Positions 878 to 56,186 of a DNA stretch of 64,000 nt are shown here, in pieces (position 1 is the first letter of the stretch; every line of letters begins with the position of its first letter). A model generated the notes under the pieces. It ran no database searches. It was not told the origin of the DNA and saw only the letters and a program-made list of their open reading frames with translations. The translations under genes and the position numbers were made by a program. The stretch lies in the NCBI GenBank assembly GCA_018064365.1, contig JAGHVJ010000006.1, positions 2,058 through 66,057 of the forward strand. Direction: 5' to 3'. The DNA comes from Candidatus Enterousia onthequi. GTDB taxonomy: Bacteria > Pseudomonadota > Alphaproteobacteria > Rs-D84.

Positions 878-1007
878 ATGCCGGTGCTTTTATACATATT
901 TGCCGGCAAAAAAACATCAAAAAACGCCGGGAAAATTTAGAATTATAAATGATTTCTAGAACGGATAGCCACGTATGTATAAACACTTTTATTGTGTATA
1001 TTATCAA

Positions 1008-1485: not shown

Positions 1486-1617
1486 AAAAATACTAACATT
1501 AAAAACTGAAATTTGCGCTGGGAAAGAAATCAAAAAAATCGCAAATTTTTACTTGCAAAAATACCGTTCGGCCAGCATAATGCCAAGGCTAAATGTTCAA
1601 CAAAAAAAGGAGTAAGT

Positions 1618-12186: not shown

Positions 12187-12867
12187 TTATTCTGCGGTAA
12201 TTTTACTCATAAATTCATTATGATTTTTTAATTCATCATCGTGCGCAGGAAAATGGCGATGTGGGAAATTTTCACCAATCTTTGGATGCTTTAACATGGC
12301 CTCGTGTTGCTGGGCGATAACATCGTTTATATCTGGTGCCGGTGCCGTGTTTTCTAATTCTAAATATACTTTTGCCAAAATTTCCGCGTCAATCAAAGCA
12401 CCGTGTGCATCTGCGCGTGCGGTCAGTGATACGCCAAACCATTTGGCCAATGCGTCCAAAGTATATGCCTTTGGACCGAATACACGATTGCGTGCGATAA
12501 CAATAGAATCGCGTTGCTGGTCGCGTGAAATTTGTGGCAACCCCAATTTTGCTAATTCAAAATTTATAAACGGAAAGTCAAAGTCAAACCCATTGTGCGC
12601 AACAATCGGTGCATCGCCAATAAATTCTAAAAATTTTGGTGCAATCTCACTCATCTTTGGTTTGTCTTCCAAAAAAGCATTTGAAATTTTATGAACCATA
12701 TATGTTTCAGGTGGAATAATTTTACCCTCGGGGTTTATGTATTCGTGAAAAGTATTTTCAGTAAGCACACCATCAACCAATTCAACCGCGCCGATTTCAA
12801 TACAACGGTCGCCACGAGTCCATTCAAACCCTGTTGTTTCAATATCAAAACATATAATTCTTGCCAT
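12187..12867 (-). CDS. dnaQ: DNA polymerase III epsilon subunit (3'-5' exonuclease)
   Basis: MARIICFDIETTGF (Exo I), HNGFDFDFPF (Exo II) and HGALIDAEILAKVY (Exo III). Confidence 0.9.
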   Translation of the reverse strand: MARIICFDIETTGFEWTRGDRCIEIGAVELVDGVLTENTFHEYINPEGKIIPPETYMVHKISNAFLEDKPKMSEIAPKFLEFIGDAPIVAHNGFDFDFPFINFELAKLGLPQISRDQQRDSIVIARNRVFGPKAYTLDALAKWFGVSLTARADAHGALIDAEILAKVYLELENTAPAPDINDVIAQQHEAMLKHPKIGENFPHRHFPAHDDELKNHNEFMSKITAE

Positions 12868-12908
12868 AATTTCACCTTAAAAAATGTGATTGAGATAATC
12901 TATTTTTT

Positions 12909-17785: not shown

Positions 17786-17798
17786 AATGATTTACCTT

Positions 17799-19004
17799 TT
17801 ACGACCTCATTTTCTCGATAATAATTTTAGCGGGTTTTTTGATATAGTTATTAGCAAATCCTTTTGTTAAATTCATTAAACTATCGCCAAATTCTTTGCC
17901 AACCGCATTGTCGCTGGCTTGGACTTGGAACATGCCCAAAACAGTCTTTGTAATATTTGGAATATTACTATAAATAAATCCTAGTACATAAACCAAGACC
18001 ACAACACTAATCAGTGTTAAATCGTTTATGCCCGTTTGATTTAAATCTGTTTCAAATACAGTCCCATCCATAATTGCAGCCAACAAAGTATCAAAGTTAT
18101 TTAGATTGCCGTCTGGGTCTGCAAAGAATTTCACAATAATCACCAAAATCACAGTGTATGTAATTATCGCCACCCCCAAAGATATTATAGCACCAACCAT
18201 ATTTTTTATCTGTTCAACACCGACCCCTTTGCCCAGGGATTTTATCCAACTCAACCAATATGGAACATCTGCTGATTCCTTAAATGCAGTGGTAACCAAA
18301 GATAACGGAAAGAAAAATGCAAACATCGCCATGGCGATAATAACATCTATGAAATAACACAAAAATTGGAAAAACATTTTGAAAAACGCCCAAAACAAAT
18401 ACACCCCGATAAATGCCAATAATAAATGTTTTATAAATGCCCCAATCCCCATAAACATAGCCCATGAAAACCCAGTGTCTAACATTGCGACGCCCAGTTT
18501 CATAAACGATTGAAACAAAGTAAGTGTGACTTTTGCGGTATTGATAATAGAATCACGTAATTCTTGTCTGAATATCCCACCAGAATCATCCATCGGTTGT
18601 GGGGTGTATTCAATGTGTTCTTCAATTTGTTCTGGGGTCAATTGTATCATAGCAGATGCATAGTTTTGTGTCACAATAGCCACCGGTTCAAAAGCCACCT
18701 GGGTTATAAAACGTGGCAACATAACCCCCATGCCCAAAAAAGTCAAAGCAAACAAAGAATTTATAAAAACAGGCCGTATAGATTTGTTAAACCAACCATC
18801 TTGAAAGCCTTCCTTCATGTTTTTCCAAACCGCACCAAAAATATAAAACGCAAATATTGCACAGAATAAAATTGTGCAAATAAGAACGAATTTAGGATAT
18901 GCCGCTGCAGCCGCATCTGACACAATTTGAAACATGCGGTCAAATATCGGACAAGACCAACATTGCGCAGTATTATCGATAAAGGATTGTGCCAAATTAT
19001 TCAT
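17799..19004 (-). CDS. Polytopic membrane protein, paralog 3 (VirB6/TrbL-like, putative)
   Basis: The N-terminal motif CWSCPIF before the first TM is shared with 20347..21669 (CWSCQIF). Confidence 0.45.
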   Translation of the reverse strand: MNNLAQSFIDNTAQCWSCPIFDRMFQIVSDAAAAAYPKFVLICTILFCAIFAFYIFGAVWKNMKEGFQDGWFNKSIRPVFINSLFALTFLGMGVMLPRFITQVAFEPVAIVTQNYASAMIQLTPEQIEEHIEYTPQPMDDSGGIFRQELRDSIINTAKVTLTLFQSFMKLGVAMLDTGFSWAMFMGIGAFIKHLLLAFIGVYLFWAFFKMFFQFLCYFIDVIIAMAMFAFFFPLSLVTTAFKESADVPYWLSWIKSLGKGVGVEQIKNMVGAIISLGVAIITYTVILVIIVKFFADPDGNLNNFDTLLAAIMDGTVFETDLNQTGINDLTLISVVVLVYVLGFIYSNIPNITKTVLGMFQVQASDNAVGKEFGDSLMNLTKGFANNYIKKPAKIIIEKMRS

Positions 19005-19006
19005 AA

Positions 19007-20284
19007 TTATCCCTTAAAAAATTTAACAACATTTTTCACCTTGCCAGGCACAGCCTTGGCCATGCCCCATGTTGTTTTTGCATCGCCTTTGACCTGGTTA
19101 TACAATGCGGTTGCGTCTTTGCCGACATATCCTGTCAATTTTTCGCGTGTGATTTCAAATATTTTATTCATTAAAAAGAAAGTCAATAAACAAGATAACC
19201 ATAAAACAGAATGCCCGCCAAATCCACTGGATAAAGAATCCATGCTTGGTAAATTAGAATACGCAACGCCACCCGCTGCTGTGACGAACATACGACTGTT
19301 CCATTGGAACAAAGCGCGCACCAATGCCAAATTTACACACAATATAAATGCACATGCAATCATTGTCACAACCATTTGTTTTAATGCAGTTATAATGCCA
19401 GAAAAAGCAGGCCATATATCAAACCAACTGTCGCTTTTTTTTGCAACCCATGCGGCCACACCAAAAGGATATAAAATCAAAGCCATACCAAAATTAAATA
19501 TCGTTTGAATAATCAACAAAGCCATAAATAAATTGCACCCCGTAAATGTTATAATCAACAAAATACCAGAAATAATATTCATAAAACCTTGACCGCTGTT
19601 GTGCGACATTAATGTGGTTAAAGTACGCAGTCCATTAGACAAATAAGTAAGCCCACGTTTTATTACAGTATTGTTTGCATGAGACAAAACATGCACAGGT
19701 TGAATTAAATATTCACAAGATTCTGTGTCCAACCAACCCTGTGCCATTAAATTTGATGGACATTGCACCGCGCGCATATCTTCTAAATTTACATCAGATG
19801 CAGCCTTCATAATTTCGGTAGTAAACAAAGAACCAAAACTTAAAAAAGGATTAATCAAATGTTTGGTCATAAAATCTGGCCGTAATGGCAACAAAAGTAT
19901 GGCCGCAACCAATACGCGTATTGCAGGTTTTGCAACATTGTTTGCGATTTTCATTCCGTCAGTATTCTCGATAGAATCCCCAGATTTGAATCCAAATGTG
20001 GACATCCAATATTTAGGAACAAATAATTTAATCAAATACAACGCGACATAAAATACAAAAAATCCCCATACTAATAAATAAATTATACCGTCGTGATTTT
20101 GCCCAACGAAATAAGCATAAGTCCCATTTGCAACAAACATAAATGCATCCAGTACAATAGGCACTAATTTTGAAATGTCCAAAGAATCAACATCAATCAG
20201 ACCCCATCCTGCCAACGCCACACTGGGCACGAATGAGCAGAACAATAAAGTGCATCCAATTAAAAATTTTTTAATACAATTCAT
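19007..20284 (-). CDS. Polytopic membrane protein, paralog 4 (VirB6/TrbL-like, putative)
   Basis: Signal peptide. Motif IRVLVAAILLLPLRP matches IRVLFVGALLLVPLPR in 20347..21669. Confidence 0.45.
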   Translation of the reverse strand: MNCIKKFLIGCTLLFCSFVPSVALAGWGLIDVDSLDISKLVPIVLDAFMFVANGTYAYFVGQNHDGIIYLLVWGFFVFYVALYLIKLFVPKYWMSTFGFKSGDSIENTDGMKIANNVAKPAIRVLVAAILLLPLRPDFMTKHLINPFLSFGSLFTTEIMKAASDVNLEDMRAVQCPSNLMAQGWLDTESCEYLIQPVHVLSHANNTVIKRGLTYLSNGLRTLTTLMSHNSGQGFMNIISGILLIITFTGCNLFMALLIIQTIFNFGMALILYPFGVAAWVAKKSDSWFDIWPAFSGIITALKQMVVTMIACAFILCVNLALVRALFQWNSRMFVTAAGGVAYSNLPSMDSLSSGFGGHSVLWLSCLLTFFLMNKIFEITREKLTGYVGKDATALYNQVKGDAKTTWGMAKAVPGKVKNVVKFFKG

Positions 20285-20346
20285 CTCTTATAATATTATT
20301 ATTGTAATTATAACATAAATCGATAAAATTATGTTATAATTAAAAT

Positions 20347-21669
20347 ATGAATTGGCTAAAAAAATTTTGGATAGTTTTTACATCTTTCTTGCCGTTTTCA
20401 GCAGGGGCTTTTTCGCCACTTTTAATTGGTGGAATTGCGTTTGGCGGTGGAATAATTGGGGTTTCTATTTGGCGCAATGTGTCCCCTGTAAATATGTCTG
20501 ACGCATTATCTTTTTTTTCCAGTTGTTGGTCATGTCAAATTTTTTCAGATGTTGTCGCAACAATGTCAAATATTATTCCTGTGACCTATAAATCTTTGGG
20601 TGGTATAATAATACCATTTGCAATTGTTTTGACAGCAGTATGGTTTGCGTGGCAATTATTGACATTGTTTATCACGCCCGGTCAAGATAAACAGATAAAT
20701 AATTTAGGGTGGAGTCTTGCAGGACAATGGGGAACTCATGTTATTCGTGTTTTATTTGTAGGGGCATTGTTGCTTGTTCCATTACCGCGAATGATTTCAT
20801 CTGTTGTACTGGAACCTGTGTTTAATATTGGTTTGTCTATGAATTATACAATGTCTGTGGCTGATGCTCGCCAGAACTATGCAAATTGCATAATTGCAAC
20901 TGCGGTCTCGGATGTGTCTGCAACCCGGACAGATACTGCAAATCCTGGTATAAATGCATTTTCACCGCGATTTCGTCATAACTTAACATGTCAAATTGCA
21001 AATATACATCAAATGACAGGTTTGGGAATGACAATTGGTTGGACAATGTTAAATATGGCGTTTAACTATGATTATATGCATAAATTGATGTGGGGAATAC
21101 CGATTTTTCCCAATGTGCCATTGATATTGACGGGGCTTTTGATATTGGCGCTGTATTTATCTGCATTATTGCCGATACCATTATATTTCTTGGAAATATT
21201 TATCAAATTATCTATTGATTTTGTTTTGTTGCCATTGACACTGTTATCGTGGATATTCAAAGGTTGGAAAATATTTCCGTCTGGCAAGGGAAATATAAAA
21301 CAAATCATAGATGATGTTATTTCTGGTGTTTTAGGTTTGGCAATGACGGGCATATTTATAACATTTTCAATAATGTTGTTAAATGCGGCTTTTGGTAATT
21401 GGAAAGGTGCATCTGCATTACAAACTGCGATTACCCAAAACGATTCGAAAATTTTAATAGATTCGTTAATGTCCACCACAGGCAGTAAATCTCTGATAAC
21501 CATAATATTGATGGGGATATTTATGACTATGTTTATGGTGATGATACCTGCATTGATAAAGTCGTTATTTAACATAACAGTATCTGATAAATACTATCAA
21601 ACCGCAAAAAAAGATATAAATTTATTGTGGAATGGCGCGAAAAAGTGGTGGTCTGCCGCAAAAAAATAA
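20347..21669 (+). CDS. Polytopic membrane protein, paralog 5, divergently transcribed (VirB6/TrbL-like, putative)
   Basis: Shares the CWSCQIF and IRVLF..LLLVPLPR motifs with the paralogs on the opposite strand. Confidence 0.45.
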   Translation: MNWLKKFWIVFTSFLPFSAGAFSPLLIGGIAFGGGIIGVSIWRNVSPVNMSDALSFFSSCWSCQIFSDVVATMSNIIPVTYKSLGGIIIPFAIVLTAVWFAWQLLTLFITPGQDKQINNLGWSLAGQWGTHVIRVLFVGALLLVPLPRMISSVVLEPVFNIGLSMNYTMSVADARQNYANCIIATAVSDVSATRTDTANPGINAFSPRFRHNLTCQIANIHQMTGLGMTIGWTMLNMAFNYDYMHKLMWGIPIFPNVPLILTGLLILALYLSALLPIPLYFLEIFIKLSIDFVLLPLTLLSWIFKGWKIFPSGKGNIKQIIDDVISGVLGLAMTGIFITFSIMLLNAAFGNWKGASALQTAITQNDSKILIDSLMSTTGSKSLITIILMGIFMTMFMVMIPALIKSLFNITVSDKYYQTAKKDINLLWNGAKKWWSAAKK

Positions 21670-21735: not shown

Positions 21736-22248
21736 GTGATGAAAAAGTTTCCGATTCTTTATTGGCCACGCAAAACGACAGACGATGCAGAATATCAATT
21801 GTCGCGCAAGGTTATAAATAATGCGACTGGCACAATGCCTGATGTAATATCAGATAATCTGGATTTAGACGCGATAATGAACGAAAACCCAGATTCTGTG
21901 GTTTATTATCCGGTATTTTGTGGCTCGACCGGTTGGTGGGGCGAATTATTGGGCGCGAACGCGGTTGTGGTTGATAAAATGATAATTTCTCCGGAATGCC
22001 AACTGATGGTGATTCAGTCTGATAAAAACGCGAATTCATCTGGTTCAAACCAGTTATTGGCGGCGGAAATATACCCCAGCAGTGGTTTTTTCAAGAAAAT
22101 GAATTCATCTATTGCAACTGTGGCGGATATGTTGGCCACGGATGCTGGTACAATTTTGGCATTGTTTTCTGGTCGTAATCCAAATAAATTTGTAAATATC
22201 TTGGAATCGACTGGAAATTCATACCTGGGTTGTATCGGTCGATATTAA
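21736..22248 (+). CDS. Hypothetical protein
   Basis: ORF only. No recognisable motifs. Confidence 0.35.
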   Translation: MMKKFPILYWPRKTTDDAEYQLSRKVINNATGTMPDVISDNLDLDAIMNENPDSVVYYPVFCGSTGWWGELLGANAVVVDKMIISPECQLMVIQSDKNANSSGSNQLLAAEIYPSSGFFKKMNSSIATVADMLATDAGTILALFSGRNPNKFVNILESTGNSYLGCIGRY

Positions 22249-25951: not shown

Positions 25952-26695
25952 ATGACACGCTATAAAATTGCATTAGAATACGATGGAACGAATTTAATTG
26001 GCTGGCAAGAAAACTTGGACGGCCCGTCTGTTCAATCTATTCTGATGGATGCATGCGAACAATTTTGCGGCTTGCGTCCAACTATATTTGGCGCAGGGCG
26101 GACAGATTCTGGTGTTCATGCAATATCTATGACTGCGCATTTTGATTTGGAACGTGATTATGATGCTGATACAGTTATGCGTGCATTAAATTTTTATTTG
26201 TTAAAACAGCCCGTATCGGTTTTGTCTTGCGAAATTGTTGATGAAGATTTTCATGCTCGCTTTTCTTGTGTTGCGCGTCATTATAAATATGTCGTGTTAA
26301 ATCGCGCTTCTGCGCCCGTTCTTGAAAAAAACAGGGTATATTGGTTTCCTCAAAAATTAGATGTTGAATCAATGCGTGTCGCTGCCAAAAAATTATTAGG
26401 CCAGCATGATTTTACATCTTTTCGTGCCGCCCAATGCCAAGCCAAAAGTCCGATAAAAACACTCGATAAGTTAGATATTACTGTTGATGGCAATCATATA
26501 ATTTTTGAATTGTCTGCACGTTCGTTTTTGCACCATATGGTTCGCAACATTGTTGGCACATTGTTAGAAATCGGTGTTGGTAAACCATATGATATTGATG
26601 AAATATTATCGGCAAAAAATCGCAGTACCGCCGGTCCCACCGCACCGGCATCTGGATTATATTTTATTCGTGCGGATTATCCCACCAACGACTAG
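25952..26695 (+). CDS. truA: tRNA pseudouridine(38-40) synthase
   Basis: YDGTNLIGWQ..GAGRTDSGVHA (catalytic Asp region)...HHMVRNIVG. Confidence 0.9.
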   Translation: MTRYKIALEYDGTNLIGWQENLDGPSVQSILMDACEQFCGLRPTIFGAGRTDSGVHAISMTAHFDLERDYDADTVMRALNFYLLKQPVSVLSCEIVDEDFHARFSCVARHYKYVVLNRASAPVLEKNRVYWFPQKLDVESMRVAAKKLLGQHDFTSFRAAQCQAKSPIKTLDKLDITVDGNHIIFELSARSFLHHMVRNIVGTLLEIGVGKPYDIDEILSAKNRSTAGPTAPASGLYFIRADYPTND

Positions 26696-28709
26696 TCGGT
26701 GTGTATTCTATTTTTCCAGATTTATAAATTACGAAACCATTACGCAAAATTTTGTGATTGCATTTTGGTCCAGATATATCAAAATACGATACGATAAAAT
26801 CAATGTCATCATCACGACATAATTTCACAATATTTTTATGCAATGGAACAAATTTTTGGATATACGCCACAGTGAAATTTTCGGATTTATAAATACAAAT
26901 GCCGTCTGGACATTTGCGCCGAACATTTTTATCAGATGGCGGTTCATTGTTTAATTGTCTAAATGTGTTAAAAGCAAAATAATGATTAGAAGCACGCGCT
27001 TTATTAAATTCTAGTTTACCGTCATACACCATGCCAACCAATTCGTGGTCGCTTGTTGCATAAAATACAGGCGTTTGTCGGGTCGCAATAATTATGACAC
27101 CAATTATAATACATACGCCAAACAATAAATAATTTGCACGACGATAAATCCAAAGTTTTGCTTTCATCAGTGGTTTTACCAAAATTAAAAACATCAAACC
27201 CAATACGAATATAACAAATGCACTTGTTGGAATATGCGGTATGATAATATTAGATGCAGGCCAATCAGCAATTTTCTGCGCGATTCCCAATGCAAAATTA
27301 TAAACAACCATTGCGTAATCTAATAACATATGAAAACCAAATCCAGAGCATAATGTTCCAATCAAAACCATGGGCATAATTGCAAACGAAAATATCGGCA
27401 GTAATATTAAATTGCCAACCAAACTATACAGTGGCACAGAATTAAAATGTGTTGCGATAAATGGCAATGTGAATATTGTTGCAATAACAGAGGTCATAAT
27501 TGCTGCATAAAATCCATTTTTTATTTTTTCTAAACGACTTTTGTTTTCAAAAGTTTGCCCGTCAAAAAACCAAATCAAACCAAATATAGCGGCAAAAGAT
27601 AATTGAAATCCTACCTGGGTTACGAAATGAGGATTTACAAAAAACAAAATTAAAAACGCGATTGAAATATTTCGCATAGACACAGCGTTTCGTCCCAATA
27701 ACAAAGCCAAAAATAACACAGTTGTCATCAAAAACGCGCGCCATGTCGCGACCCCGAATCCAGAAATGCAAACATATAAAAATAATATCAGCCACGCACA
27801 AATTGTTGCTGTATATCGCGCAGGAATTCGTCGTGTTAAAAATCCGCATGCGCGTAGAATAAAATAGAAAATTGCAAACAACCACCCACCAATCAAAGTC
27901 ATATGAAAACCACTGATTGACCAAATATGCCCAACACCTGCGGTTGTCCAAATATTGCTATCTGGGATTGGAACGGCATTTTTATAGCCCAACACCAAAC
28001 CGTCGGTTAAAAAAGAATTTGCCGCATTGTGAATTTTATTACGAAACCCGTTTACATTAAATGCATCGTCGTGCGACAAAATTTGATAATCTGTCATAAA
28101 TCCATTTGCAGTTAAATTATTAAAATATGCCCACCGTGCATAATCAAATGTTTCTGGTGCTTCGATTTTAGCAGGCGCAAACAAGAAAGCACGGCCAGAA
28201 ATTATATCTCCGATTTCAGGACGGTTTGTATCATCTGAAATTGTGACCCGAACATTAGCATTTTTTGCTAAATTTAAATCAGATGCATTGACTTGCAATA
28301 CCAACCTTGTTTTGTTATCTGATTCATCTATATCTATAACCGTAGCGGTAATGTTTTTATCGCGTACATCATATTTTAACACAGGTGTCCCAACTATAAA
28401 ATGCGTATAAAATATTGCATACGAAAACCCGAATATAAACAGCATAATGGCACGCAGAATCAAATTCTGTTTGTTAAATAGTAAAAGTATGATACTGACA
28501 ATAAACGCCAATCCGATAAATTTAATGTTTGGTTCAAATGGTAATATGAAATATAAACCTGCGCCCAATGCTAATAACATTGGCGACCATAAAAATTTAT
28601 TTTTTAATTGTTCTGATAAAAAATCACGCATGTATGAATTATAGGAACGAAAGTTCTGTGCGCAACCATTATTTTCCAAATATAAAATCAGGGTCAGCAG
28701 CCAAGGCAA
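26664..28709 (-). CDS. comEC: ComEC/Rec2-family DNA internalisation membrane protein (no beta-lactamase domain)
   Basis: N-terminal TMs, then a periplasmic OB-like segment, then a multi-TM competence domain (..GFQLSFAAIFGLI..). The start is uncertain. Confidence 0.75.
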   Translation of the reverse strand: MPWLLTLILYLENNGCAQNFRSYNSYMRDFLSEQLKNKFLWSPMLLALGAGLYFILPFEPNIKFIGLAFIVSIILLLFNKQNLILRAIMLFIFGFSYAIFYTHFIVGTPVLKYDVRDKNITATVIDIDESDNKTRLVLQVNASDLNLAKNANVRVTISDDTNRPEIGDIISGRAFLFAPAKIEAPETFDYARWAYFNNLTANGFMTDYQILSHDDAFNVNGFRNKIHNAANSFLTDGLVLGYKNAVPIPDSNIWTTAGVGHIWSISGFHMTLIGGWLFAIFYFILRACGFLTRRIPARYTATICAWLILFLYVCISGFGVATWRAFLMTTVLFLALLLGRNAVSMRNISIAFLILFFVNPHFVTQVGFQLSFAAIFGLIWFFDGQTFENKSRLEKIKNGFYAAIMTSVIATIFTLPFIATHFNSVPLYSLVGNLILLPIFSFAIMPMVLIGTLCSGFGFHMLLDYAMVVYNFALGIAQKIADWPASNIIIPHIPTSAFVIFVLGLMFLILVKPLMKAKLWIYRRANYLLFGVCIIIGVIIIATRQTPVFYATSDHELVGMVYDGKLEFNKARASNHYFAFNTFRQLNNEPPSDKNVRRKCPDGICIYKSENFTVAYIQKFVPLHKNIVKLCRDDDIDFIVSYFDISGPKCNHKILRNGFVIYKSGKIEYTPTSRWWDNPHE

Positions 28710-28983
28710 TTATTGTATCCATATCGTCAGAGTCAGACGCTTTTTGCCGAATTGTCTTGCCACATTTTTCGCATTTATGGGTAATAACAAAATGGCCGGC
28801 CGATTGTTCTACACAAACAGGTGCCATCATACCGCCACAATCACTTTGTCTGTCCCCAGGATTGTTATCAACATGTCGCGACCATAGGCATTTTGGACAA
28901 TGGTTTGTATAACCATTTCCATGCACAACTGCGCCACAATGGGCGCAGTTAAAATCTTCTATACGTTTTATGAATTGTTTCAT
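28669..28983 (-). CDS. RNHCP-domain Cys-rich protein
   Basis: FNCAHCGAVVHGNGYTNHCPKCLWSRHVDNNPGDRQSDCGGMM. Confidence 0.6.
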   Translation of the reverse strand: MKQFIKRIEDFNCAHCGAVVHGNGYTNHCPKCLWSRHVDNNPGDRQSDCGGMMAPVCVEQSAGHFVITHKCEKCGKTIRQKASDSDDMDTIIALAADPDFIFGK

Positions 28984-47796: not shown

Positions 47797-48710
47797 GCGT
47801 TTCCCCCATTTGTATCATGTAATATCGCATCGCGCAGTTTTTGATATGCGCGTTCTTCAATTTGTCGCACGCGTTCGCGTGAAATAGAATATTTTTGTGA
47901 CAAAGATTCTAATGTTTCAACCGGTTCACTCAATCGCCGTGCGCGCAGAATTTCACGGTCGCGTTCAGGCAATTCTGCCAAATGTTTGCGCAACAATTCA
48001 TACCCACGTTTTTTGAATTCCAGTTGTTCAATGCTGTCTTCGATTCCGATTTTATCGTCAGAAAGATTAGATAAAATATCATGCGCATCTGGGTCATTAT
48101 GTGCGGGGGAATTCAAAGAAACATCACGCGCGCCAACACGAGTCGCCATACGTGATACATCGTTTTCAGAAACATTTAAAAAATCTGCGATTTGTTTTGT
48201 TTGTTCTGAATTCAAATTATTGTCCATAATTCCCAAAGCCCGCTTTGCGCGTGCCAAATTAAAAAATACGCGTTTTTGGTTTGCAGATGTTCCAATTTTC
48301 ACAATAGACCAATTATTCAAAATTGTTTCGTAAATTTCTGCCTTGATCCAAAACATTGCGTATGTAGAAAAACGAAAACCGCGTTCTGGGTCAAATTTTT
48401 GTAATGCCTGCATCAAACCCATATTACCAGACGCAATTAAATCCGCCACTGGCACGCCATAGTTTTTGAAATCATACGCCACCGACACAACCAAACGCAG
48501 GTGTGACGCAACCAATTTTTCCGCCGCACTTGCATCATGATTTTGTGTCCAACGCGATGCATATTCATATTCTTGTTCAGCCGATAAAACAGGGTATTTT
48601 TGAATACTTTGAATATATTGAGCCAAACCCGATTCATCACTGACCCCACGGGCGGCGACAATACTGGTATTATTTACTGTTGGTAAAGTATTCTTGATTT
48701 GCTTTTTCAT
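47793..48710 (-). CDS. rpoH: RNA polymerase sigma-32 heat-shock factor
   Basis: RpoH box QKRVFFNLARAKR and sigma-70 regions 2 to 4. Confidence 0.9.
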   Translation of the reverse strand: MKKQIKNTLPTVNNTSIVAARGVSDESGLAQYIQSIQKYPVLSAEQEYEYASRWTQNHDASAAEKLVASHLRLVVSVAYDFKNYGVPVADLIASGNMGLMQALQKFDPERGFRFSTYAMFWIKAEIYETILNNWSIVKIGTSANQKRVFFNLARAKRALGIMDNNLNSEQTKQIADFLNVSENDVSRMATRVGARDVSLNSPAHNDPDAHDILSNLSDDKIGIEDSIEQLEFKKRGYELLRKHLAELPERDREILRARRLSEPVETLESLSQKYSISRERVRQIEERAYQKLRDAILHDTNGGNA

Positions 48711-48762
48711 AACTTTTATAGTATATCATAAAATATCAATTATCAAGACCCAGGAGTATAAA

Positions 48763-49425
48763 ATGGCTAGTATTTTAGACCGGAAAAAAAACCTAAAACC
48801 CGCAACCCCGAAAAAGACACGCGAAGATTATGCCCAAGACGCCCTATATCGCGAGGTATGGGAAGATGTGAATAACGAAAAAACAATCGCTTTTTTCAAA
48901 AAATATGCAAAGCCAATGATTGGCGGGGCGCTGGCAATAATGATTATTGTGGCTGGATATCAAATTGGTGTGCGTGCATATCGTTCTAAACAAATAGCAA
49001 CGGCACAAATTTACGAAACAGCATTGGAAAATACAGATGTTAATGCATTGGCAAAATTGGGTGCAGATGCTCGTGGTGCAAATGCAGATTTGGCATTGTT
49101 TCAATCTTATGTGTTGGATAAAAACAAAGATATTACAAAATTGGAAAAATTGGCTGAACACGGCAATACTCGTGATTTTCGTGATTTGGCACGTTTGCAT
49201 GTTATTGGTGTTCGTGGGGATGAAATGTCTGCGCCCCAGGTGGAAAAATACCTATCTGAATTAAATACAAAATCGTCACCATTTTATTATACTGCGATGT
49301 TGACGATTGCCCAGAAATATTTGGCGTCTGGCGATACAGAATCTGCGAACAAATGGTTGGATAAATTATCATCTGACCCTGATTGTCCCGCAGAAATTTC
49401 TGGTATGGCCCAAAGTCTGAGATAA
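48763..49425 (+). CDS. YfgM-like membrane-anchored TPR-like protein
   Basis: TM at ~aa 45-65. Sits next to a BamB-like gene (the yfgM-bamB synteny). Confidence 0.5.
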   Translation: MASILDRKKNLKPATPKKTREDYAQDALYREVWEDVNNEKTIAFFKKYAKPMIGGALAIMIIVAGYQIGVRAYRSKQIATAQIYETALENTDVNALAKLGADARGANADLALFQSYVLDKNKDITKLEKLAEHGNTRDFRDLARLHVIGVRGDEMSAPQVEKYLSELNTKSSPFYYTAMLTIAQKYLASGDTESANKWLDKLSSDPDCPAEISGMAQSLR

Positions 49426-49444
49426 AAAATTCAGGGGGGATTTT

Positions 49445-50182
49445 ATGCGTAAATATGCATTGATGATTTTGTGTGGTTTGTGTGTTGTGGCATGTGCTAA
49501 ACACGACCCAATTTTACCTGGGGTTCGCACAGACATATTTAATAACACAGATACGAAAAAAATATTAAACGAATCTGTCAATGATTTACCTGATACTGCC
49601 CCGACACGCGAAAGCCCGGAATGTAAATACACAATCGATTCGACAAATACGATTCGTGACGATGGTGGTCGTAAAATATTTGTGGGATTTGCATCTCCGA
49701 ATTCCATAGATATTGAAACAAAACCGATTTGCAATGGTGGTTATGTTTATGCTGGATTAAATACAGGAAATGTTGTAAAAATTGCACCAAAAAAACGCGA
49801 CATTGTTTGGATGACTGATGTATTCACAGAATCTAATATGATGGGCGGTGCTACAACCGTTGATATTGTTGCACCATTAGTTATGGATGGCGGATATATC
49901 TATGTTGGCGGTATGGGTGATGCATTTTGTAAAATCAATGTGAATAACGGTGATAAAAAATGGTGCACCCAGATTGGTACGCGTTTCCCGTTTATTGTGT
50001 TGAAAAATGTTGCGTATGTAATGGGGGTGGACGATATGTTATACGCGGTTCGAACATCTGATGGCGCAATATATTGGCATACAGATGTCATATCAAAACC
50101 CACAACCCCAATATATGAAAATAAAATAATTCAAATTGGGAAAAAACGATTTGATGCGCAATCTGGTTCTGAAACAAAATAA
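49445..50182 (+). CDS. bamB: BamB-like PQQ-repeat beta-propeller lipoprotein (short)
   Basis: Lipobox LCVVAC. Repeated GGYVYAG / GGYIYVGG / GAIYW beta-propeller-type motifs. Confidence 0.5.
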   Translation: MRKYALMILCGLCVVACAKHDPILPGVRTDIFNNTDTKKILNESVNDLPDTAPTRESPECKYTIDSTNTIRDDGGRKIFVGFASPNSIDIETKPICNGGYVYAGLNTGNVVKIAPKKRDIVWMTDVFTESNMMGGATTVDIVAPLVMDGGYIYVGGMGDAFCKINVNNGDKKWCTQIGTRFPFIVLKNVAYVMGVDDMLYAVRTSDGAIYWHTDVISKPTTPIYENKIIQIGKKRFDAQSGSETK

Positions 50183-50539
50183 AAAAAATCTGACATTTTT
50201 GTCAGATTTTTTTAAATATCGAAATAGGGCGTCCGGTGTTTGTATCCAAAACTTTTTTATCCCAATGGCATGTTTTACATAATTCACACATGTTTTTGCA
50301 TTCTTGTTAAAACATATTCGTTGTGGCGATTTTATACAAATAAAAACCCAACCCAGTGCGCGTAATCGTTTGATTCCTTGGGCAGAGATTGTTATATATG
50401 CAACATTGCCACAATGCGCAAATTGATGCAGAACGAATCTGTTTTTATATCGAACAATAACAGCACAATGCTTAAAATGTCGGCATACCAAACGCACAAT
50501 CGGTAAATGTGTTTTACAAGAAAAGCCAATAATAATCAT
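50093..50539 (-). CDS. Hypothetical ORF (Cys/His/Phe-rich, low confidence)
   Basis: Open for 193 codons in AT-rich DNA with no competing plus-strand ORF, but the composition is unconvincing. The start was placed after the upstream ORF. Confidence 0.25.
   Translation of the reverse strand: MIIIGFSCKTHLPIVRLVCRHFKHCAVIVRYKNRFVLHQFAHCGNVAYITISAQGIKRLRALGWVFICIKSPQRICFNKNAKTCVNYVKHAIGIKKFWIQTPDALFRYLKKSDKNVRFFLFCFRTRLRIKSFFPNLNYFIFIYWGCGF
50189..50213. terminator. Bidirectional terminator
   Basis: A-tract, then TCTGACA-TTTT-TGTCAGA, then TTTTTTT. Confidence 0.75.
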
Positions 50540-50552
50540 GAAAAAACCTTTT

Positions 50553-50897
50553 TTAATCAATCCAACCATTTTTGCGCGCAGCATTTTCAATAACTTGCAT
50601 GGCGCCGTTCCATAAATAAGCATCGTGATTTTCAGCCCAAATATATTGATGAGGTGCACGACGTTTGTCGCCAAATTTTTTCATCACTGCCAGTTGTTCT
50701 TCACTTAATCGGCCAGATAAATACAATTTTGTAATCATGGTTTCTACATCTAATAATTCGCAAATTCGACGAGTGCCCGGACGATGATGTTGCACCAATC
50801 CAGATTGAACAGATTTTGAATAAACAAACCAAAAGCACATCTGTTCCGCATTGTGAAATTTTTCCATATTGTCATGAGTATTTTGTAATGTATTCAT
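50553..50897 (-). CDS. Hypothetical small cytoplasmic protein (114 aa)
   Basis: Balanced composition, no motif recognised. Lies just downstream of virB10. Confidence 0.45.
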   Translation of the reverse strand: MNTLQNTHDNMEKFHNAEQMCFWFVYSKSVQSGLVQHHRPGTRRICELLDVETMITKLYLSGRLSEEQLAVMKKFGDKRRAPHQYIWAENHDAYLWNGAMQVIENAARKNGWID

Positions 50898-51069
50898 TTT
50901 TTTCTCCTTTGCTGGTATTTGTTTTATAAAGCAAAACAGGTGTGATTGCCAAATATTACAACCCGGGGTTGAAGTTCGAATCGAAAAATATATTGTTTAG
51001 CAATATTTTCCTAATCGTATTCGAATCGACGCACACTTTTGTTTTGCTTGTGCTTTATTTAATAAAAAA

Positions 51070-51097
51070 ACACACATCTTGCGATGTGTGTTTTTTT
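51070..51097. terminator. Bidirectional terminator after virB10
   Basis: ACACACATC-TTGC-GATGTGTGT with flanking A- and T-tracts. Confidence 0.75.
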
Positions 51098-51115
51098 ACA
51101 CTTGATTTCCACATA

Positions 51116-53596
51116 TCAATATACTTCGATTGGTGGAAAACAATCTCCGCTGCCGGCGGGGCAACATGCATACGGCGACTCAGAACCAGGTCCCATTTCC
51201 GTATAAACTTCGCCTGTGCAACAACCGTTCGCATCAGGTGACGTCCCATCTTCGCATAACAGAGTCCCAACCGTATCTGCCGCCGGTGCCGCCGGTTTTT
51301 CAAAAGGATTGACGATATTGCTGTTATCATCGTATTGCAATCCCAGAACCTGTTCGTTGTACTCTTGGGTTCCTTGGTTCAATGTTATGGCTTGTCCCTC
51401 ACTATCAACACCTTGGATACCTTGTGTTACTTTATTCTGATAATACGCATCATATTTTGCCTGGTTCACAGCCTGATAATTTTGTGCCTGGCAATACGCC
51501 AACACTGTTTTGTAATCATACCCAGATTTGCGTATCTCTTCTAATTTCCCATCATCCACGGTCCATACATCATTATCTTTCCGGGTGCAAAATTTTGATA
51601 AATTAAATCCACGTGATTGCCCCGTCCACGAAGAGTCGTCGGGGTTAACGGTTATCTCACCTTGCACATCTGACCATTTACGACGTTGTGCCTTGCCAAA
51701 TGCGTGAAATGCACATTTCTTACCCGCATTGGCACCAGCCTCGTCGTCTTCGCCACACGTCGCAACCAAATCAACCGGTGAATAAACCGTAATACGTGTT
51801 CCTGCGGCAATTGAAAATGGTGGAACGGTATTATCCAATGCATCAACTATCAATTTTTGTGCAACTTGATTCCATGCAGTAATAACCTCGTTTTTTGCCA
51901 ATTCTGATGAACGCACTTTTCCAGATTGCACAACTGTATTATTATCTAAATCAATTTGATTTACAAAAGTATCTGCAATTGGCGCAATCATATTTACCGC
52001 CGCCGGTATAACCGCCGTCAATAATGGCATAACCATTTGTTCTATGTAATCGGTACTACCATACCCCGGCACACCAACACGTCCTTGGGAATCCGCGGAA
52101 TATGGGTCTTGTTCTTTTGCGAAATTAAATTCCACACCGTCCGGACGAATAAATTGATACCAGTTTATCTCCATACGTCCAATAGACTTATATGGCCCTG
52201 GCAATTCGCCTGTCAAATACCCCATCAACAAAGTTCCTGTTGGAATAATAACTGTGCGCCCGTTATCAGAATAAACATTTCTATCTACCGTTGCACGCAC
52301 AGGAATACCTTTGCCACCCGTGCATGTTCCTCCGGCGTTTAAATTACATCCATATACAGACGGATCTGCACGAACATCAGATACAATTGTTGCCGGAATT
52401 GGTTTGAATTGACGTAATATAAATGTTCTATCATACGGCATACTGGAATACACAGATTCGTCATCCAAAGATGAACCTATCAATGCCTCTTTTTTTAATT
52501 CGTTTTTTGCAAAATTCAAAACCCCAGAACCTTCTTGTGGTTGCATTGTTTTTCTCAAATTTCCCATACCCTTTGGTACATAATTTCCCGATGTCGCAGG
52601 TGCGGCTACGCGTGTAGATTTTGAACGTAATTGAGGAACCGTATTAGTATTCACTGTTCCACTACGATGGTCGGCATCTGTCCCAATCTTTTTACGACCT
52701 TCGATACTGGTTATAATCCCTGTATCAGGATTATAAATACCGGTTGGACTATTACATTCTACGTCTGAAAAAGGATGAAATTCATAACGTCCAGCCTTTG
52801 GTTTTATCCAACCAATTTGTTCGCCCGACATATCATATCCCGGCATTGCAAAATCAGAACATTTTTCTGGTGCTTTACGACGTGGTGTTATTTCTTCTGT
52901 TGCGCCAAATATATTTCTATTACCACCAACAATCGGTTCAGGTTCTTCAAAATCATCTTCTTCATCAATCAAAAAATCATCTTCTGGAACGATTGGTTCT
53001 GGTTCCGAAATTGGTGCCGAAACCGGCTCTGGCTTTACAACTGGTTTTTGTTCTGGTTCTGGTTCTGGTTCTGCAACGCCACCTGTTGCACTAACAGGAA
53101 TAACGATTTTTGATGTTTTTAAATTAGTATTTTCCGTATCGTTTTTATCGTGCCATTCAACCAATAATGTTACGTTCCCAGAAACATTGCTATCGCCCGG
53201 AATAAATGTCACATCCACAGAACAAGGAATGTCTTTATTCACTGGTTTATTTGCACATCCAAATGTATTCGCAGAAAAACCAGATACAGAATCTTGTACA
53301 CTGACAGAATCAACAATCGCGTCATGTGTAGCATTGATTTTGAATTTTTGTGTTTGTTTTTGTCCAATCTTGGTATTAGAAAAATCAACATTTTCTGGCG
53401 ATATCACCAAATCAATATCGTAATCAGTTCCAACAACAGGCGCAGCCTTTTTTTTAGGTTGTCCAATCAACAAGAACAACAATATCAAAACGACAACAAA
53501 CGCCGCCACCAACAACAACCAACGAACTACGGGTGGCGTCGTATTAAATGCTTCTTGTATTTTTGTTTTTATTTTATCTTTCAGTGTATTTGCCAT
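51116..53596 (-). CDS. virB10: Type IV secretion system VirB10 (826 aa), with an N-terminal extra domain, a Pro-rich linker and a ~200-aa Cys-rich C-terminal extension
   Basis: N-terminal TM, PEPEPEQKPVVKPEP, and a TrbI/VirB10 barrel region (..RTFILRQFKPIPATIVSDV..VIIPTGTLLMGY..RMEINWYQFIRPDGVEF..GYGSTDYIE..). Confidence 0.8.
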   Translation of the reverse strand: MANTLKDKIKTKIQEAFNTTPPVVRWLLLVAAFVVVLILLFLLIGQPKKKAAPVVGTDYDIDLVISPENVDFSNTKIGQKQTQKFKINATHDAIVDSVSVQDSVSGFSANTFGCANKPVNKDIPCSVDVTFIPGDSNVSGNVTLLVEWHDKNDTENTNLKTSKIVIPVSATGGVAEPEPEPEQKPVVKPEPVSAPISEPEPIVPEDDFLIDEEDDFEEPEPIVGGNRNIFGATEEITPRRKAPEKCSDFAMPGYDMSGEQIGWIKPKAGRYEFHPFSDVECNSPTGIYNPDTGIITSIEGRKKIGTDADHRSGTVNTNTVPQLRSKSTRVAAPATSGNYVPKGMGNLRKTMQPQEGSGVLNFAKNELKKEALIGSSLDDESVYSSMPYDRTFILRQFKPIPATIVSDVRADPSVYGCNLNAGGTCTGGKGIPVRATVDRNVYSDNGRTVIIPTGTLLMGYLTGELPGPYKSIGRMEINWYQFIRPDGVEFNFAKEQDPYSADSQGRVGVPGYGSTDYIEQMVMPLLTAVIPAAVNMIAPIADTFVNQIDLDNNTVVQSGKVRSSELAKNEVITAWNQVAQKLIVDALDNTVPPFSIAAGTRITVYSPVDLVATCGEDDEAGANAGKKCAFHAFGKAQRRKWSDVQGEITVNPDDSSWTGQSRGFNLSKFCTRKDNDVWTVDDGKLEEIRKSGYDYKTVLAYCQAQNYQAVNQAKYDAYYQNKVTQGIQGVDSEGQAITLNQGTQEYNEQVLGLQYDDNSNIVNPFEKPAAPAADTVGTLLCEDGTSPDANGCCTGEVYTEMGPGSESPYACCPAGSGDCFPPIEVY

Positions 53597-53631
53597 AATT
53601 ATCTATCCATTTGTTATAACAAATTGCAATA

Positions 53632-55149
53632 TTATTGAATTCTAACCACGCGACATCCTGATACTTGGAATTTCATCAGTTTATCGCACAGTGTTTGAGC
53701 AGTGTCAATATCTTCCAATGGGCCAATGCGCAAGCGATACATCGTTGCACTGGATACACCAGAACCCAAATCACCAACGCCTTCGGTATCAATTGCAAAG
53801 AATACTTTATTTTGATATGGGGTTAAAATTCCAGCACCACCATCACCGCTGAATTTTACCAATAAATCGTTCCAATATTCTTCCAAAGCCTTGGGCGATT
53901 TATCAGAAGCAAACTCAACTGCAACACCAGATACACTAGATTTTATCAAAGGAATGTTTGATTGCGGTAAATATGCCCCCGCGGTTTCACGTGCTGTTGG
54001 AATCATTGTCGCACCCCCAGATACAGCCCCAGTCATCGCCGGCACATTATTGTATCCAGATTGCATATATGTCTCTGCACCCATCGGGGATACAGCGTTT
54101 GGCATATACATTGGTGTTGCGTTGTAATCCATTGGCGCACCATACATTGCAGCACTATTTGCGTCATATGCAATATTATTCAAAGATTGCCCAGACATCA
54201 TGCTTTGTGCAACATTTGCCTCGGCTAATGCCATAACAGAAGCCGTGTCTGCAATCAAGAACGGTTTTTCACGTTTTTTGATACAAACAATTCTTTGACC
54301 ACTGCGCAACACCATATCGCCAACCGCCTCGACAATCAACAGTCTCCCGTCTTGACCATCTGTCCGGAATCCAACTGGGGATTCGCCGCCTTCTATCAAT
54401 AATGATACAACAGGACGTTGAGTCATAGCGATAACCTTGTCCCCAAAATCAATGTATGTAAATATTTTATCGCGCCACACACGTTCTGGTGCAATAACAT
54501 AGTCATCTGGGTTTGGAACAAAAATATCCAAATCAAATCTGAATTCAGACGGGTCGATTTTCATAGATTTAATCCACGCATAATCTTCGCCATCTACACC
54601 AATAGTATTGGCTGTGGATGCAGGCTTTCTGAATATAGAATTCATACCACCAGATGTGTGCTGTGTTGTTGCCCCATTGGTTGCAATAGATGTCCCGTCA
54701 TCTAAAACAACATCTACTTGGGAATAAGAAATTTCGTCTGTATCAATCCCTTGGGGATTAGATAAATAGAATATATATTTGTTCCCTGATTGCCCCGTCA
54801 CAATCATATTTGTATCACTGGCGGCCCCATTTTCAGACATTGGTGTGACATAAAAAGTGCGATCGCCTTGGGTTGCCTCTATTTGATATAAAGACTGATC
54901 ACCAACCACCGCGTCGGCAATTTGTTCGCCGTTTGGCAGTGTGACCATCGTGACCATACCCATACGCAATTTTAATGGTAATACAGTTCCTTTGGACCAT
55001 GCCAATTGTGCGTACCCAGGTTTGGTACTGCCCACCGCCATATTCGCAGACGGATTTTCCCATGCTTTCTGTACTTCTGCATATGTAGTGCCAATCGACA
55101 TTAAAACCAACAAAGACACCAAACAGTTGATTTTCAAAAATTTTAACAT
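53632..55149 (-). CDS. virB9: Type IV secretion system VirB9 (505 aa), with a C-terminal low-complexity linker and a SPOR-like domain
   Basis: Signal peptide. VirB9/TrbG N- and C-domains (..IFTYIDFGDKV..RLLIVEAVGDMVLRSGQ). Tail ..YRLRIGPLEDIDTAQTLCDKLMKFQVSGCRVVRI. Confidence 0.75.
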   Translation of the reverse strand: MLKFLKINCLVSLLVLMSIGTTYAEVQKAWENPSANMAVGSTKPGYAQLAWSKGTVLPLKLRMGMVTMVTLPNGEQIADAVVGDQSLYQIEATQGDRTFYVTPMSENGAASDTNMIVTGQSGNKYIFYLSNPQGIDTDEISYSQVDVVLDDGTSIATNGATTQHTSGGMNSIFRKPASTANTIGVDGEDYAWIKSMKIDPSEFRFDLDIFVPNPDDYVIAPERVWRDKIFTYIDFGDKVIAMTQRPVVSLLIEGGESPVGFRTDGQDGRLLIVEAVGDMVLRSGQRIVCIKKREKPFLIADTASVMALAEANVAQSMMSGQSLNNIAYDANSAAMYGAPMDYNATPMYMPNAVSPMGAETYMQSGYNNVPAMTGAVSGGATMIPTARETAGAYLPQSNIPLIKSSVSGVAVEFASDKSPKALEEYWNDLLVKFSGDGGAGILTPYQNKVFFAIDTEGVGDLGSGVSSATMYRLRIGPLEDIDTAQTLCDKLMKFQVSGCRVVRIQ

Positions 55150-55173
55150 TGCATCCTTCCTTTTTTTACTTTT

Positions 55174-55947
55174 TTAATTTTCTTCTGCTTGACGAGTCCA
55201 ATTTAACGGGTCGTTTTGCTCTAAATCTAAAATATTGCCACCAGAATCGATAACATTATAATCACTGATTCGGAATCCCAATGGGTTTTCCATGCTTTCT
55301 GCCCATCGAACCGCATTTTTGGCATTAGATTCTAATTTTACACGCAATTTGTACGGCTTGCGATATTCCATATCGCCCAATGGCCCATATACGCAAATAT
55401 AAGTAAATGTCACATCGTAAGTGTCTGTGCTGTTCGTGACCGGGACCACAGAAAGTGTGGACGGATATTCAACAGAACACCGGATATCAAACGCTTCGTC
55501 TAAATCTTGACGAATAATATTTACCATATCTGTCATAACAAATTTTCCAAAAACCGAATCTGTTGAACGGGTTTTTACAACGCCAGTATCGTTATGCGCC
55601 CATTTTGCCCGCATTACCGCTAAATCAGGTACAATTTCATTCCGCGCAAGCACATATTCACGAATAAATTGCTTTTTATAGACATCTAAATCCATATCTG
55701 TCGGCATTTCGGTCAGTGTTAATTCTTTATCGCGTATATTTGTTGTGGTCAAGAAAAACACCTGGGGACGATTAAGAGGGAACATTTTTGCCAATGTAAA
55801 AACCAAAACCCCCAGCACAACCACAGCCGTTGCCAAAACAAAGGTCATCAGTCTGGATATTAAAATTGGCGGTTCTACGCGGTCTTGCAAAGGTTTTCTC
55901 CTCCCTTTTATTAAATGATTGTAGACAAAAGAATAACACATACGCAA
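55174..55947 (-). CDS. virB8: Type IV secretion system VirB8
   Basis: Cytoplasmic N-terminus, TM, NTF2-like domain. FIREYVLARNE and C-terminal NPLGFRISDYNV match VirB8 ..YVTARESY.. / NPLGFQVTSY. Confidence 0.8.
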   Translation of the reverse strand: MRMCYSFVYNHLIKGRRKPLQDRVEPPILISRLMTFVLATAVVVLGVLVFTLAKMFPLNRPQVFFLTTTNIRDKELTLTEMPTDMDLDVYKKQFIREYVLARNEIVPDLAVMRAKWAHNDTGVVKTRSTDSVFGKFVMTDMVNIIRQDLDEAFDIRCSVEYPSTLSVVPVTNSTDTYDVTFTYICVYGPLGDMEYRKPYKLRVKLESNAKNAVRWAESMENPLGFRISDYNVIDSGGNILDLEQNDPLNWTRQAEEN

Positions 55948-56112: not shown

Positions 56113-56186
56113 AGGGGCTTAGTTCAACGGTAGAATATCGGTCTCCAAAACCGCGGATGAGGGTTCGATTCCTTCAGCCCCTGCCA
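56113..56186 (+). tRNA. trnW: tRNA-Trp (anticodon CCA)
   Basis: AGGGGCT..CT-CCA-AA anticodon loop..GGTTCGATTCC..AGCCCCTGCCA cloverleaf. Canonical position upstream of secE. Confidence 0.85.

Follow-up and report, generated by a model that had tools for sequence, protein, structure and literature searches.

Can three genes of unusual size, with none of the usual motor genes beside them, form the core of a secretion system? The question is raised by a 64 kb stretch of the genome of Candidatus Enterousia onthequi (contig JAGHVJ010000006.1; hereafter the window, ~7% of the genome), in which a preliminary description had reported an operon of type IV secretion system (T4SS) genes, virB8-virB9-virB10, that does not continue into virB11 and virD4. 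We conclude, with a probability of roughly 0.65, that this operon encodes the part spanning the cell envelope, the core, of a VirB-type T4SS that is fixed in the chromosome and inherited vertically in the order Rs-D84, a machine that would move macromolecules to or from a partner cell.

Enterousia is placed in the GTDB order Rs-D84, an order of its own, whose genomes are mostly smaller than 1 Mb and are without biosynthesis of amino acids, nucleotides and lipids (PMC12306168). An obligate symbiotic or parasitic lifestyle has been proposed for these bacteria and dependence on a partner is suspected; the same study names no mechanism of partner interaction, and secretion systems go unmentioned in it (PMC12306168). 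They are uncultured Alphaproteobacteria of gut and rumen, common in the guts of humans, ruminants, horses and poultry, and we found no open-access paper that links Rs-D84 to a T4SS.

Results

Three divergent core genes form one operon

Within the window we scanned non-overlapping open reading frames (ORFs) of at least 70 amino acids (aa), and the ORF, Pfam and phmmer scans took in all six reading frames. The comparison set consisted of 81 related loci, each taken with 10 kb on either side, plus four deeper relatives (VirB10 37-42% identical). The three genes lie contiguously on the minus strand: virB8 at 55174-55890 (238 aa; the longest ORF, 257 aa, reaches 55947), virB9 at 53632-55149 (505 aa) and virB10 at 51116-53596 (826 aa), with intergenic gaps of 24 and 35 nucleotides (nt). 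All three ORFs of the preliminary description (55174-55947, 53632-55149 and 51116-53596) are present as it gave them. The start of VirB8 is most likely the TTG at 55890, 7 nt past the ribosome-binding site (RBS) GGGAGGAG, because ortholog conservation begins there, and this start yields the 238-aa protein.

The identities proposed for the three products held up in family searches. VirB8 scored 27.4 bits against PF04335 (gathering cut-off 23.2; aa 32-232), VirB9 scored 77 bits against CagX PF03524 (cut-off 34.2) and VirB10 scored 56.2 bits against TrbI PF03743 (cut-off 35), all of them weak passes. NCBIfam finds the same families far under its narrow cut-offs, indicating that VirB8, VirB9 and VirB10 are divergent homologs: VirB9 is not a member of the P-type conjugative equivalog TIGR02781 (49.3 bits versus a cut-off of 217.7), and VirB10 is a member of neither the T4SS_VirB10 equivalog NF038091 (58.3 versus 220 bits) nor the ComB10 equivalog NF038092 (45.6 versus 300 bits). 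The family profile of VirB8, a bitopic inner-membrane/periplasmic scaffold protein with one transmembrane (TM) segment by hydropathy and orthologs in 77 loci, matches the solved VirB8/TrwG structures 4lso, 4kz1, 4mei and 4jf8 (E 0.002-0.011), and that of VirB9 matches the N-terminal domain of TrwF/VirB9 (E 1.3e-4).

Downstream, an intrinsic terminator (51063-51098, minus strand), recognised by a terminator scan and in the sequence itself, begins 18 nt past the virB10 stop and has A- and T-tracts on either side of its 16-bp stem. Of 77 related loci, 76 have a hairpin with a T-tract in the equivalent position, and because the stem sequences have diverged among them, the terminator is conserved as a structure; the earlier claim that the operon terminates after virB10 is borne out, with the operon end then placed at 51070-51097. 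Upstream, tRNA-Trp occupies 56113-56186 on the plus strand and is followed by secE-nusG-rplKAJL-rpoB, as synteny with an annotated relative indicates, in agreement with the tRNA-Trp/secE flank described before. The family memberships and the three-gene operon closed by a terminator are thus established.

The locus is native to the lineage

With one genome scanned per species, 287 genomes were seen to encode the long VirB10, and the 826-aa protein has 887 homologs, the best 120 of the 887 being nearly all full length. The best 80 of the 287 genomes originate from the rumen and from the guts of humans, horses and chickens, under the labels Candidatus Enterousia, 'uncultured Alphaproteobacteria', 'uncultured proteobacterium' or 'uncultured Rickettsiales'; one of them is a single circular chromosome (OZ007020.1, 958,618 bp). 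virB8, virB9, virB10 and a small downstream gene, orf114, are co-stranded in 73 of the 81 loci, with median lengths over these loci of 237.5, 507, 813 and 116 aa, respectively. The medians for VirB9 and VirB10 indicate that the large sizes to which the preliminary description had drawn attention are real and lineage-wide rather than the product of mis-called genes, and added domains account for them.

The secE/rpoB neighbourhood of the trio is kept in the Enterousia-clade relatives whose gene maps were inspected, and in the four deeper relatives VirB8-VirB9-VirB10 is intact with different neighbours. The GC content of the locus equals that of its surroundings. The conserved gene set across loci and the matching GC content thus indicate that the locus is native and not a recent insertion.

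These observations bear directly on the proposal that the operon is the remnant of a decaying conjugative element or plasmid, or that a mis-called boundary hides virB11 and virD4. In its favour, the closest annotated VirB9 and VirB10 lie on plasmids (36% and 30% identity). However, the housekeeping position is the same across the inspected relatives, the GC content is native, the reading frames are unbroken and strongly conserved, and relaxase, integrase and repeats did not turn up in general scans of the window. The scans reached every reading frame of the window, and the conserved terminator is followed by conserved genes that are not T4SS genes. We regard this explanation as already contradicted and give it almost no credence.

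Added domains enlarge VirB9 and VirB10

VirB9 consists of a signal peptide, an N-terminal domain (~aa 48-135), a C-terminal domain (~aa 190-292), an invariant stretch (aa 296-316), a low-complexity linker and a C-terminal SPOR-like domain (~aa 400-505), with the CagX match spanning aa 48-292. Mean column identity in the family alignment is 72%; aa 296-316 are identical in all 37 aligned orthologs, and the conserved stretch reaches ~aa 325. CagX was detected in 37 of 37 orthologs and SPOR (PF05036) in 34 of them (E up to 0.01; best 4.4e-6), the window protein scoring 20.0 bits, just under the Pfam cut-off of 21. Judged by sequence, the gain in size of VirB9 is accounted for by this C-terminal SPOR-like domain throughout the lineage. 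SPOR domains bind peptidoglycan, and no open-access paper that we found mentions both VirB9 and SPOR. The window holds a second SPOR protein, a D-alanyl-D-alanine carboxypeptidase (Peptidase_S11, 31100-32239) whose C-terminal SPOR domain scores 27.9 bits, a possible internal comparison for the SPOR-like domain of VirB9.

VirB10 was modelled with AlphaFold2 (mean predicted local distance difference test score 60.7; 70-86 in the domains). The protein starts with a cytoplasmic N-terminus and a TM helix (aa 27-45 by hydropathy, aa 22-44 in the model). The model then predicts a β-sandwich at aa 60-171, an immunoglobulin (Ig) domain of the ASH/PapD-like type; a disordered Pro-rich linker at aa 173-242; a small β-domain at aa 245-310 and a second linker; and a TrbI barrel at aa 392-612 with long antenna helices at aa 515-547 and 564-590, so placed that the Ig-like domain and the small β-domain sit between membrane anchor and barrel. 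The chain closes with a 213-aa Cys-rich extension (aa 614-826), the last part of which is a 6-Cys module (aa ~778-823). Foldseek matched the barrel to CagY (top match), TrwE, Xanthomonas VirB10, ComB10 and TraF, and the β-sandwich to the ASH domains of HYDIN and CEP192; a sub-threshold NCBIfam match to choice-of-anchor D (25 bits) is in line with the ASH/PapD-like assignment. An alignment of 61 sequences shows that cysteines and whole blocks outside TrbI are conserved. VirB10 is enlarged by the Ig-like ASH/PapD domain, the small β-domain and the 213-aa Cys-rich extension.

We searched the 213-aa extension with HMMER against 1.84 billion representative proteins and obtained 174 matches at E up to 0.001. 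Among the 148 listed matches, 19 share the VirB10 core too (proteins of ~750-850 aa, or fragments), and the full-length extension is confined to proteins with that core. At least 129 listed proteins (carriers P0303-P0430) match only the last ~45 residues, always at their extreme C-terminus, and have no other similarity to VirB10. The tail motif, C..G..PD..GCC.GE.Y...CCP..GDCFPPI, holds six cysteines and lies at 51125-51262 in the window. Its carriers are of three types: signal-anchored miniproteins of 60-130 aa, secreted proteins of 180-280 aa that carry the tail one to three times, and a family of 635-830 aa with a conserved N-terminus of its own. That the short carriers are VirB10 fragments was rejected for most of them, which have a Met start, in many cases a signal peptide of their own and no match to the VirB10 core. 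Ten carriers scanned with Pfam yielded no convincing family, and no Pfam or NCBIfam model covers the 6-Cys module. Two located carriers sit in housekeeping or ABC-transporter contexts, and in a deep relative (L090) a tail miniprotein is encoded directly 3' of virB10 (10622-10957). The 6-Cys tail is thus an undescribed module common to VirB10 and many secreted proteins.

No motor genes accompany the operon

VirB4, VirB11 and VirD4 had no Pfam match among the scanned window ORFs. We also used phmmer with references from an annotated plasmid T4SS, of which VirB4, VirB11, VirD4, VirB2, VirB5-like and VirB8 were confirmed by Pfam; in the window and the 81 loci, only VirB8, VirB9 and VirB10 were recovered among the core and motor references. 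Proteins with a Walker A motif in the window were limited to an ABC transporter and UvrD. Beside the trio, virB11 and virD4 were found in none of ~86 related contexts, the four deeper relatives included, and the ancestral order B10-B11-D4 was likewise not found in those four. The lack of adjacent virB11 and virD4, first reported for this operon, is therefore clade-wide and not a feature of the window only.

These absences could be taken to mean that all T4SS ATPases have been lost and that the core is kept as a passive conduit, tether or attachment organelle. Such a motor-less envelope scaffold would fit the lack of a T4SS ATPase in any sampled context, the strong conservation of the core in a genome of ~1 Mb or less, and the presence of SPOR, ASH/PapD Ig and Cys-rich tail domains, which are adhesive or anchoring domain types. 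However, VirB10 keeps a conserved cytoplasmic N-terminus, TM helix and Pro-rich linker, the parts that in canonical systems couple VirB10 to the ATPases, and no precedent is known for a T4SS core that works without VirB4. In addition, the window covers only ~7% of the genome, and rvh systems too keep ATPases in other islets (PMC2653234). We consider a scaffold of this kind improbable, and prefer a secretion core whose motor is encoded elsewhere.

Two further islets in the window resemble T4SS components

About 14 kb from virB8-B9-B10, four plus-strand genes make up a second islet (35538-37928): a 48-aa lipoprotein with the lipobox L-A-G-C (35538-35684); VirB8-like-2 (35722-36411, 229 aa), a bitopic, divergent VirB8 paralog; p217 (36408-37061, 217 aa), a bitopic paralog of VirB8-like-2 and third VirB8-fold candidate; and p284 (37074-37928, 284 aa), a secreted protein with an N-terminal signal-like segment and no family match. 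We infer from its size, lipobox and position that the lipoprotein is VirB7-like; an ortholog precedes VirB8-like genes in two relatives (L087 and L088). VirB8-like-2 scores 19.6 bits against PF04335, under the cut-off, with a precomputed match to that family in 5 of 42 homologs, and is related to the plasmid VirB8 by phmmer (E 3.4e-5) and to the VirB8 family by HHalign (E 7.8e-4). p217 matches VirB8-like-2 by HHalign with a probability of 69% (E 4.6e-5) and VirB8 weakly (E 2.1e-3).

In relatives the four genes stay together behind bamA as a conserved unit, p284 being conserved in L087 and L088. In L090, the most divergent relative, a single block holds a helix-turn-helix regulator, a 48-aa lipoprotein, proteins of 263 and 236 aa, VirB8, VirB9 (CagX plus SPOR) and VirB10; p284 is absent from it. 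The first three proteins after the regulator are homologous to the lipoprotein (E 1.2e-20), VirB8-like-2 (E 4.4e-13) and p217 (E 1.8e-3, weak) of the window. This contiguity is decisive evidence that the second islet belongs to the same system as virB8-B9-B10 and was separated from it in the lineage of the window. The L090 block is flanked by proteins of 1173 and 1828 aa (266-3787; 12192-17678) with no Pfam family, which are candidate surface proteins or substrates.

A third islet lies ~30 kb from virB8-B9-B10. Four tandem polytopic membrane proteins of 428, 498, 401 and 425 aa (15006-20284, minus strand) are VirB6-like candidates, and a divergently transcribed fifth paralog (20347-21669, plus strand, 440 aa), polytopic by hydropathy and kept in position in relatives, is related to the 401-aa member (17799-19004; BLASTP E 2e-10). 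We modelled the 401-aa protein, and two independent methods picked the VirB6/TrwI fold, at low Foldseek TM-scores. TrbL PF04610 was not found in the polytopic proteins at E up to 10, nor in 43 family members scanned; the family had no sequence-profile match in the PDB, and HHalign against the VirB6-position protein of an Erythrobacter plasmid was negative. The modelled protein is thus predicted to have the VirB6 fold without being a TrbL member at the sequence level. VirB3 and VirB4 were not found beside the polytopic array or the second islet in the relatives inspected.

Several observations concern the surroundings of this array. In L083 (12710-14644) the last array gene encodes 644 aa, in which a counterpart of the 428-aa protein, at 57% identity to the window copy, is joined to ~200 C-terminal aa that match the MMR_HSR1 GTPase family; it is either a true fusion or the result of merged gene calls. 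In relatives, the fifth polytopic gene is always followed by a soluble protein of no family (170 aa in the window, at 21736-22248; 169 aa in L083 and L085), which may belong to the same unit. Two paralogous proteins of ~735 aa (6895-9102 and 9972-12182) with N-terminal signal-like segments and no Pfam family flank rpmA, and presumably rplU too; their position is kept in L083, L085 and L041.

Comparison with known systems

The preliminary description had compared the operon with rvh loci, and the two additional T4SS-like islets (35538-37061 and 15006-21669) support the comparison. The rvh system is vertically inherited as an archipelago of five islets; its VirB6 genes number five and stand in tandem, VirB8, VirB9 and VirB4 are each duplicated, and VirB7 is small. 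Its islet C reads virB9a-B8a-B7-B8b-B9b-B10-B11-D4, and its VirB6 array follows virB3-virB4a (PMC2653234, Gillespie et al. 2009). The system described here shares with it a chromosomal, vertically inherited state in genome-reduced Alphaproteobacteria, scattered islets (three in the window, their positions kept across the clade), five hydrophobic, putatively VirB6-type proteins in a row (the fold being modelled for one), multiple putative VirB8 copies and a small VirB7-like lipoprotein next to them. It differs in that the operon ends after virB10 without running on into virB11-virD4, the polytopic array has no virB3/virB4 beside it, phmmer found no second VirB9 in the window and 81 loci, the VirB6-like proteins have no detectable TrbL domain, VirB9 and VirB10 carry SPOR-like and Ig plus Cys-rich domains, respectively, and the lineage stands in a GTDB order of its own. 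The system works like an rvh-type archipelago, and because of these differences in operon end, array context, VirB9 number, TrbL and extra domains we do not file it as an rvh member.

With the VirB (Agrobacterium), Trw (R388) and Tra (pKM101) systems it shares the VirB8, VirB9 and VirB10 domains, the order B8-B9-B10, a barrel with a two-helix antenna and the predicted VirB6/TrwI fold. Those canonical P-type operons, by contrast, run contiguously from B1 to B11, often with D4 (as in the reference plasmid, L082), and solved VirB9 chains have 255-266 aa compared to 505 aa here. The closest annotated relative found is the Erythrobacter aureus plasmid NZ_CP031358.1, whose VirB9 is 36% identical over 281 aa (aa 18-294). 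This VirB9 is also oversized (432 aa), with a faint RLRVGP match in the SPOR region and no SPOR domain called by Pfam, and the VirB6-position gene of the plasmid likewise escapes Pfam TrbL. In contrast to the window, the plasmid carries a complete contiguous operon with VirB2, B3, B4, B5-like, B11 and D4, its VirB10 (529 aa) is without the Ig and Cys-rich parts, and its VirB6-position protein has no profile similarity to the polytopic family. The Cag system of Helicobacter pylori (CagX/CagY) resembles the present one in its much enlarged core subunits, CagY being the top fold match to the VirB10 barrel. The enlargement of CagY is, however, a repeat region and not a set of Ig, β-domain and Cys-rich modules, and the Cag island encodes its own ATPases.

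The ComB system of H. pylori, encoded in the comB6-10 and comB2-4 operons without VirB11 or VirD4, suggests a different function. In a ComB-like DNA uptake machine, the VirB6/7/8/9/10 parts and a VirB4 encoded elsewhere would draw DNA in through the outer membrane, with ComEC carrying it through the inner one, supplying nucleotides, with VirB11 and VirD4 absent genome-wide. The window encodes ComEC (Competence plus DUF4131, 26664-28709), also kept in a relative, and its retention in a small genome together with the ComB-like gene content makes DNA uptake a serious functional rival to the reading of a T4SS acting on a partner cell. Like ComB, the trio forms part of a VirB7-8-9-10-type set with no adjacent virB11 or virD4 in ~86 contexts, and ComB10 is among both the sequence and the fold matches of VirB10; moreover, the lineage has no nucleotide biosynthesis (PMC12306168). 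Several points weigh on the other side: VirB10 falls far under the ComB10 equivalog cut-off; the VirB10 proteins of Cag, Trw and Xanthomonas are equally good fold matches; the closest annotated VirB9 belongs to a plasmid T4SS that has VirB11 and VirD4; the multiple copies of VirB6 and VirB8 parallel the rvh effector system and not ComB, which also differs in lacking the added domains; and no equivalent of ComB2-4, ComB4 included, was seen in the sampled DNA. DNA uptake is possible, and on this evidence unlikely. An RNHCP-domain gene adjoins comEC, and the pair (26664-28983) is retained here and in relatives.

Conserved genes downstream of the terminator

The preliminary description had the terminator followed by small hypothetical ORFs. 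Small genes are indeed present, although they are not random: two conserved genes lie at 50553-50897 and 50093-50539, both on the minus strand. The first, orf114, encodes a soluble 114-aa protein, forms its own transcription unit and is linked to virB10; it is present in 80 of 82 sequences searched, with a mean column identity of 70%, and has no Pfam or PDB relative and no hydrophobic segment. The second has a conserved core of ~112 aa starting MIIIGF, is kept in 80 related loci with C19, H24 and C84 among its invariant residues, and has no Pfam or PDB relative; its interpretation as a permuted papain/NlpC-P60-like protein is unsupported by family searches. A terminator-like hairpin follows it (50182-50213).

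Between the terminator and orf114 lies a conserved non-coding spacer (50898-51062, minus strand), which contains two TCGATTCGAA boxes ~45 nt apart (50975-50984 and 51020-51029), a CAAC-N5-GTTG palindrome, a TAATAT-like -10 element and the RBS AAAGGAGA. Compensatory changes are seen in the stem of the palindrome. The spacer is conserved among species whose proteins are only ~50% identical, and in a count of conserved 8-mers over 76 spacers CGATTCGA occurred in 43. It is probably an operator or promoter. The exact TCGATTCGAA box is absent elsewhere in the window and copies with one mismatch occur at chance frequency; the idea that it marks a regulon tying the islets together was rejected for want of enrichment outside the spacer. 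Rfam recovered only tRNA over the whole window, and the spacer matches no Rfam family. Just downstream of the T4SS unit, at 48694-50182, are a 243-aa protein with near-threshold matches to DUF2659 and TPR_21 and, beside it, a 245-aa BamB-like β-propeller fragment, BamB usually having ~380 aa.

Discussion

We favour the view, as stated at the outset, that virB8-B9-B10 encodes the envelope-spanning core of a VirB-type T4SS fixed in the chromosome of Rs-D84. In such a machine, VirB8 would be the inner-membrane/periplasmic scaffold, and VirB9 and VirB10 would form the outer-membrane core complex, assembling with the 48-aa lipoprotein. The SPOR domain of VirB9 may fasten this complex to the cell wall, as general knowledge of SPOR domains suggests. 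The periplasmic arches could consist of the three VirB8-type proteins and the inner-membrane base of the VirB6-like proteins, with at least a VirB4 ATPase encoded elsewhere providing power. The assembled machine would move macromolecules between a metabolically dependent bacterium and its partner cell.

Several findings weigh against this view. VirB4, VirB11, VirD4, VirB2, VirB3 and VirB5 were not found in the window, the 81 loci or the other contexts inspected, and no working T4SS that lacks VirB4 is known. Every NCBIfam equivalog score is far under its cut-off. The VirB6 assignment derives from a predicted fold, with one of five paralogs modelled and low TM-scores, and the VirB7 assignment from size, lipobox and position, no sequence-family test having been passed. 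The system has no known substrate or effector.

It is also conceivable that the clade is without VirB11 and VirD4, possibly without VirB4, and that the core has been repurposed for uptake of DNA or nutrients or for attachment to a partner, with the VirB9 SPOR domain as wall anchor and the 6-Cys tail of VirB10 as a docking or sorting module that many otherwise unrelated secreted proteins have in common with it. We hold this to be rather doubtful.

For T4SS biology, the locus would add a fusion of VirB9 with a SPOR-like domain, an 826-aa VirB10 with three extra modules, three putative VirB8-type proteins, predicted VirB6-fold proteins invisible to sequence models, and an undescribed 6-Cys C-terminal module. 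For Rs-D84 itself, the T4SS core is a concrete, testable candidate for the interaction with partner cells, because VirB10 is encoded in 287 species-level genomes and the operon holds a fixed position beside secE and rpoB in the inspected loci of the Enterousia clade.

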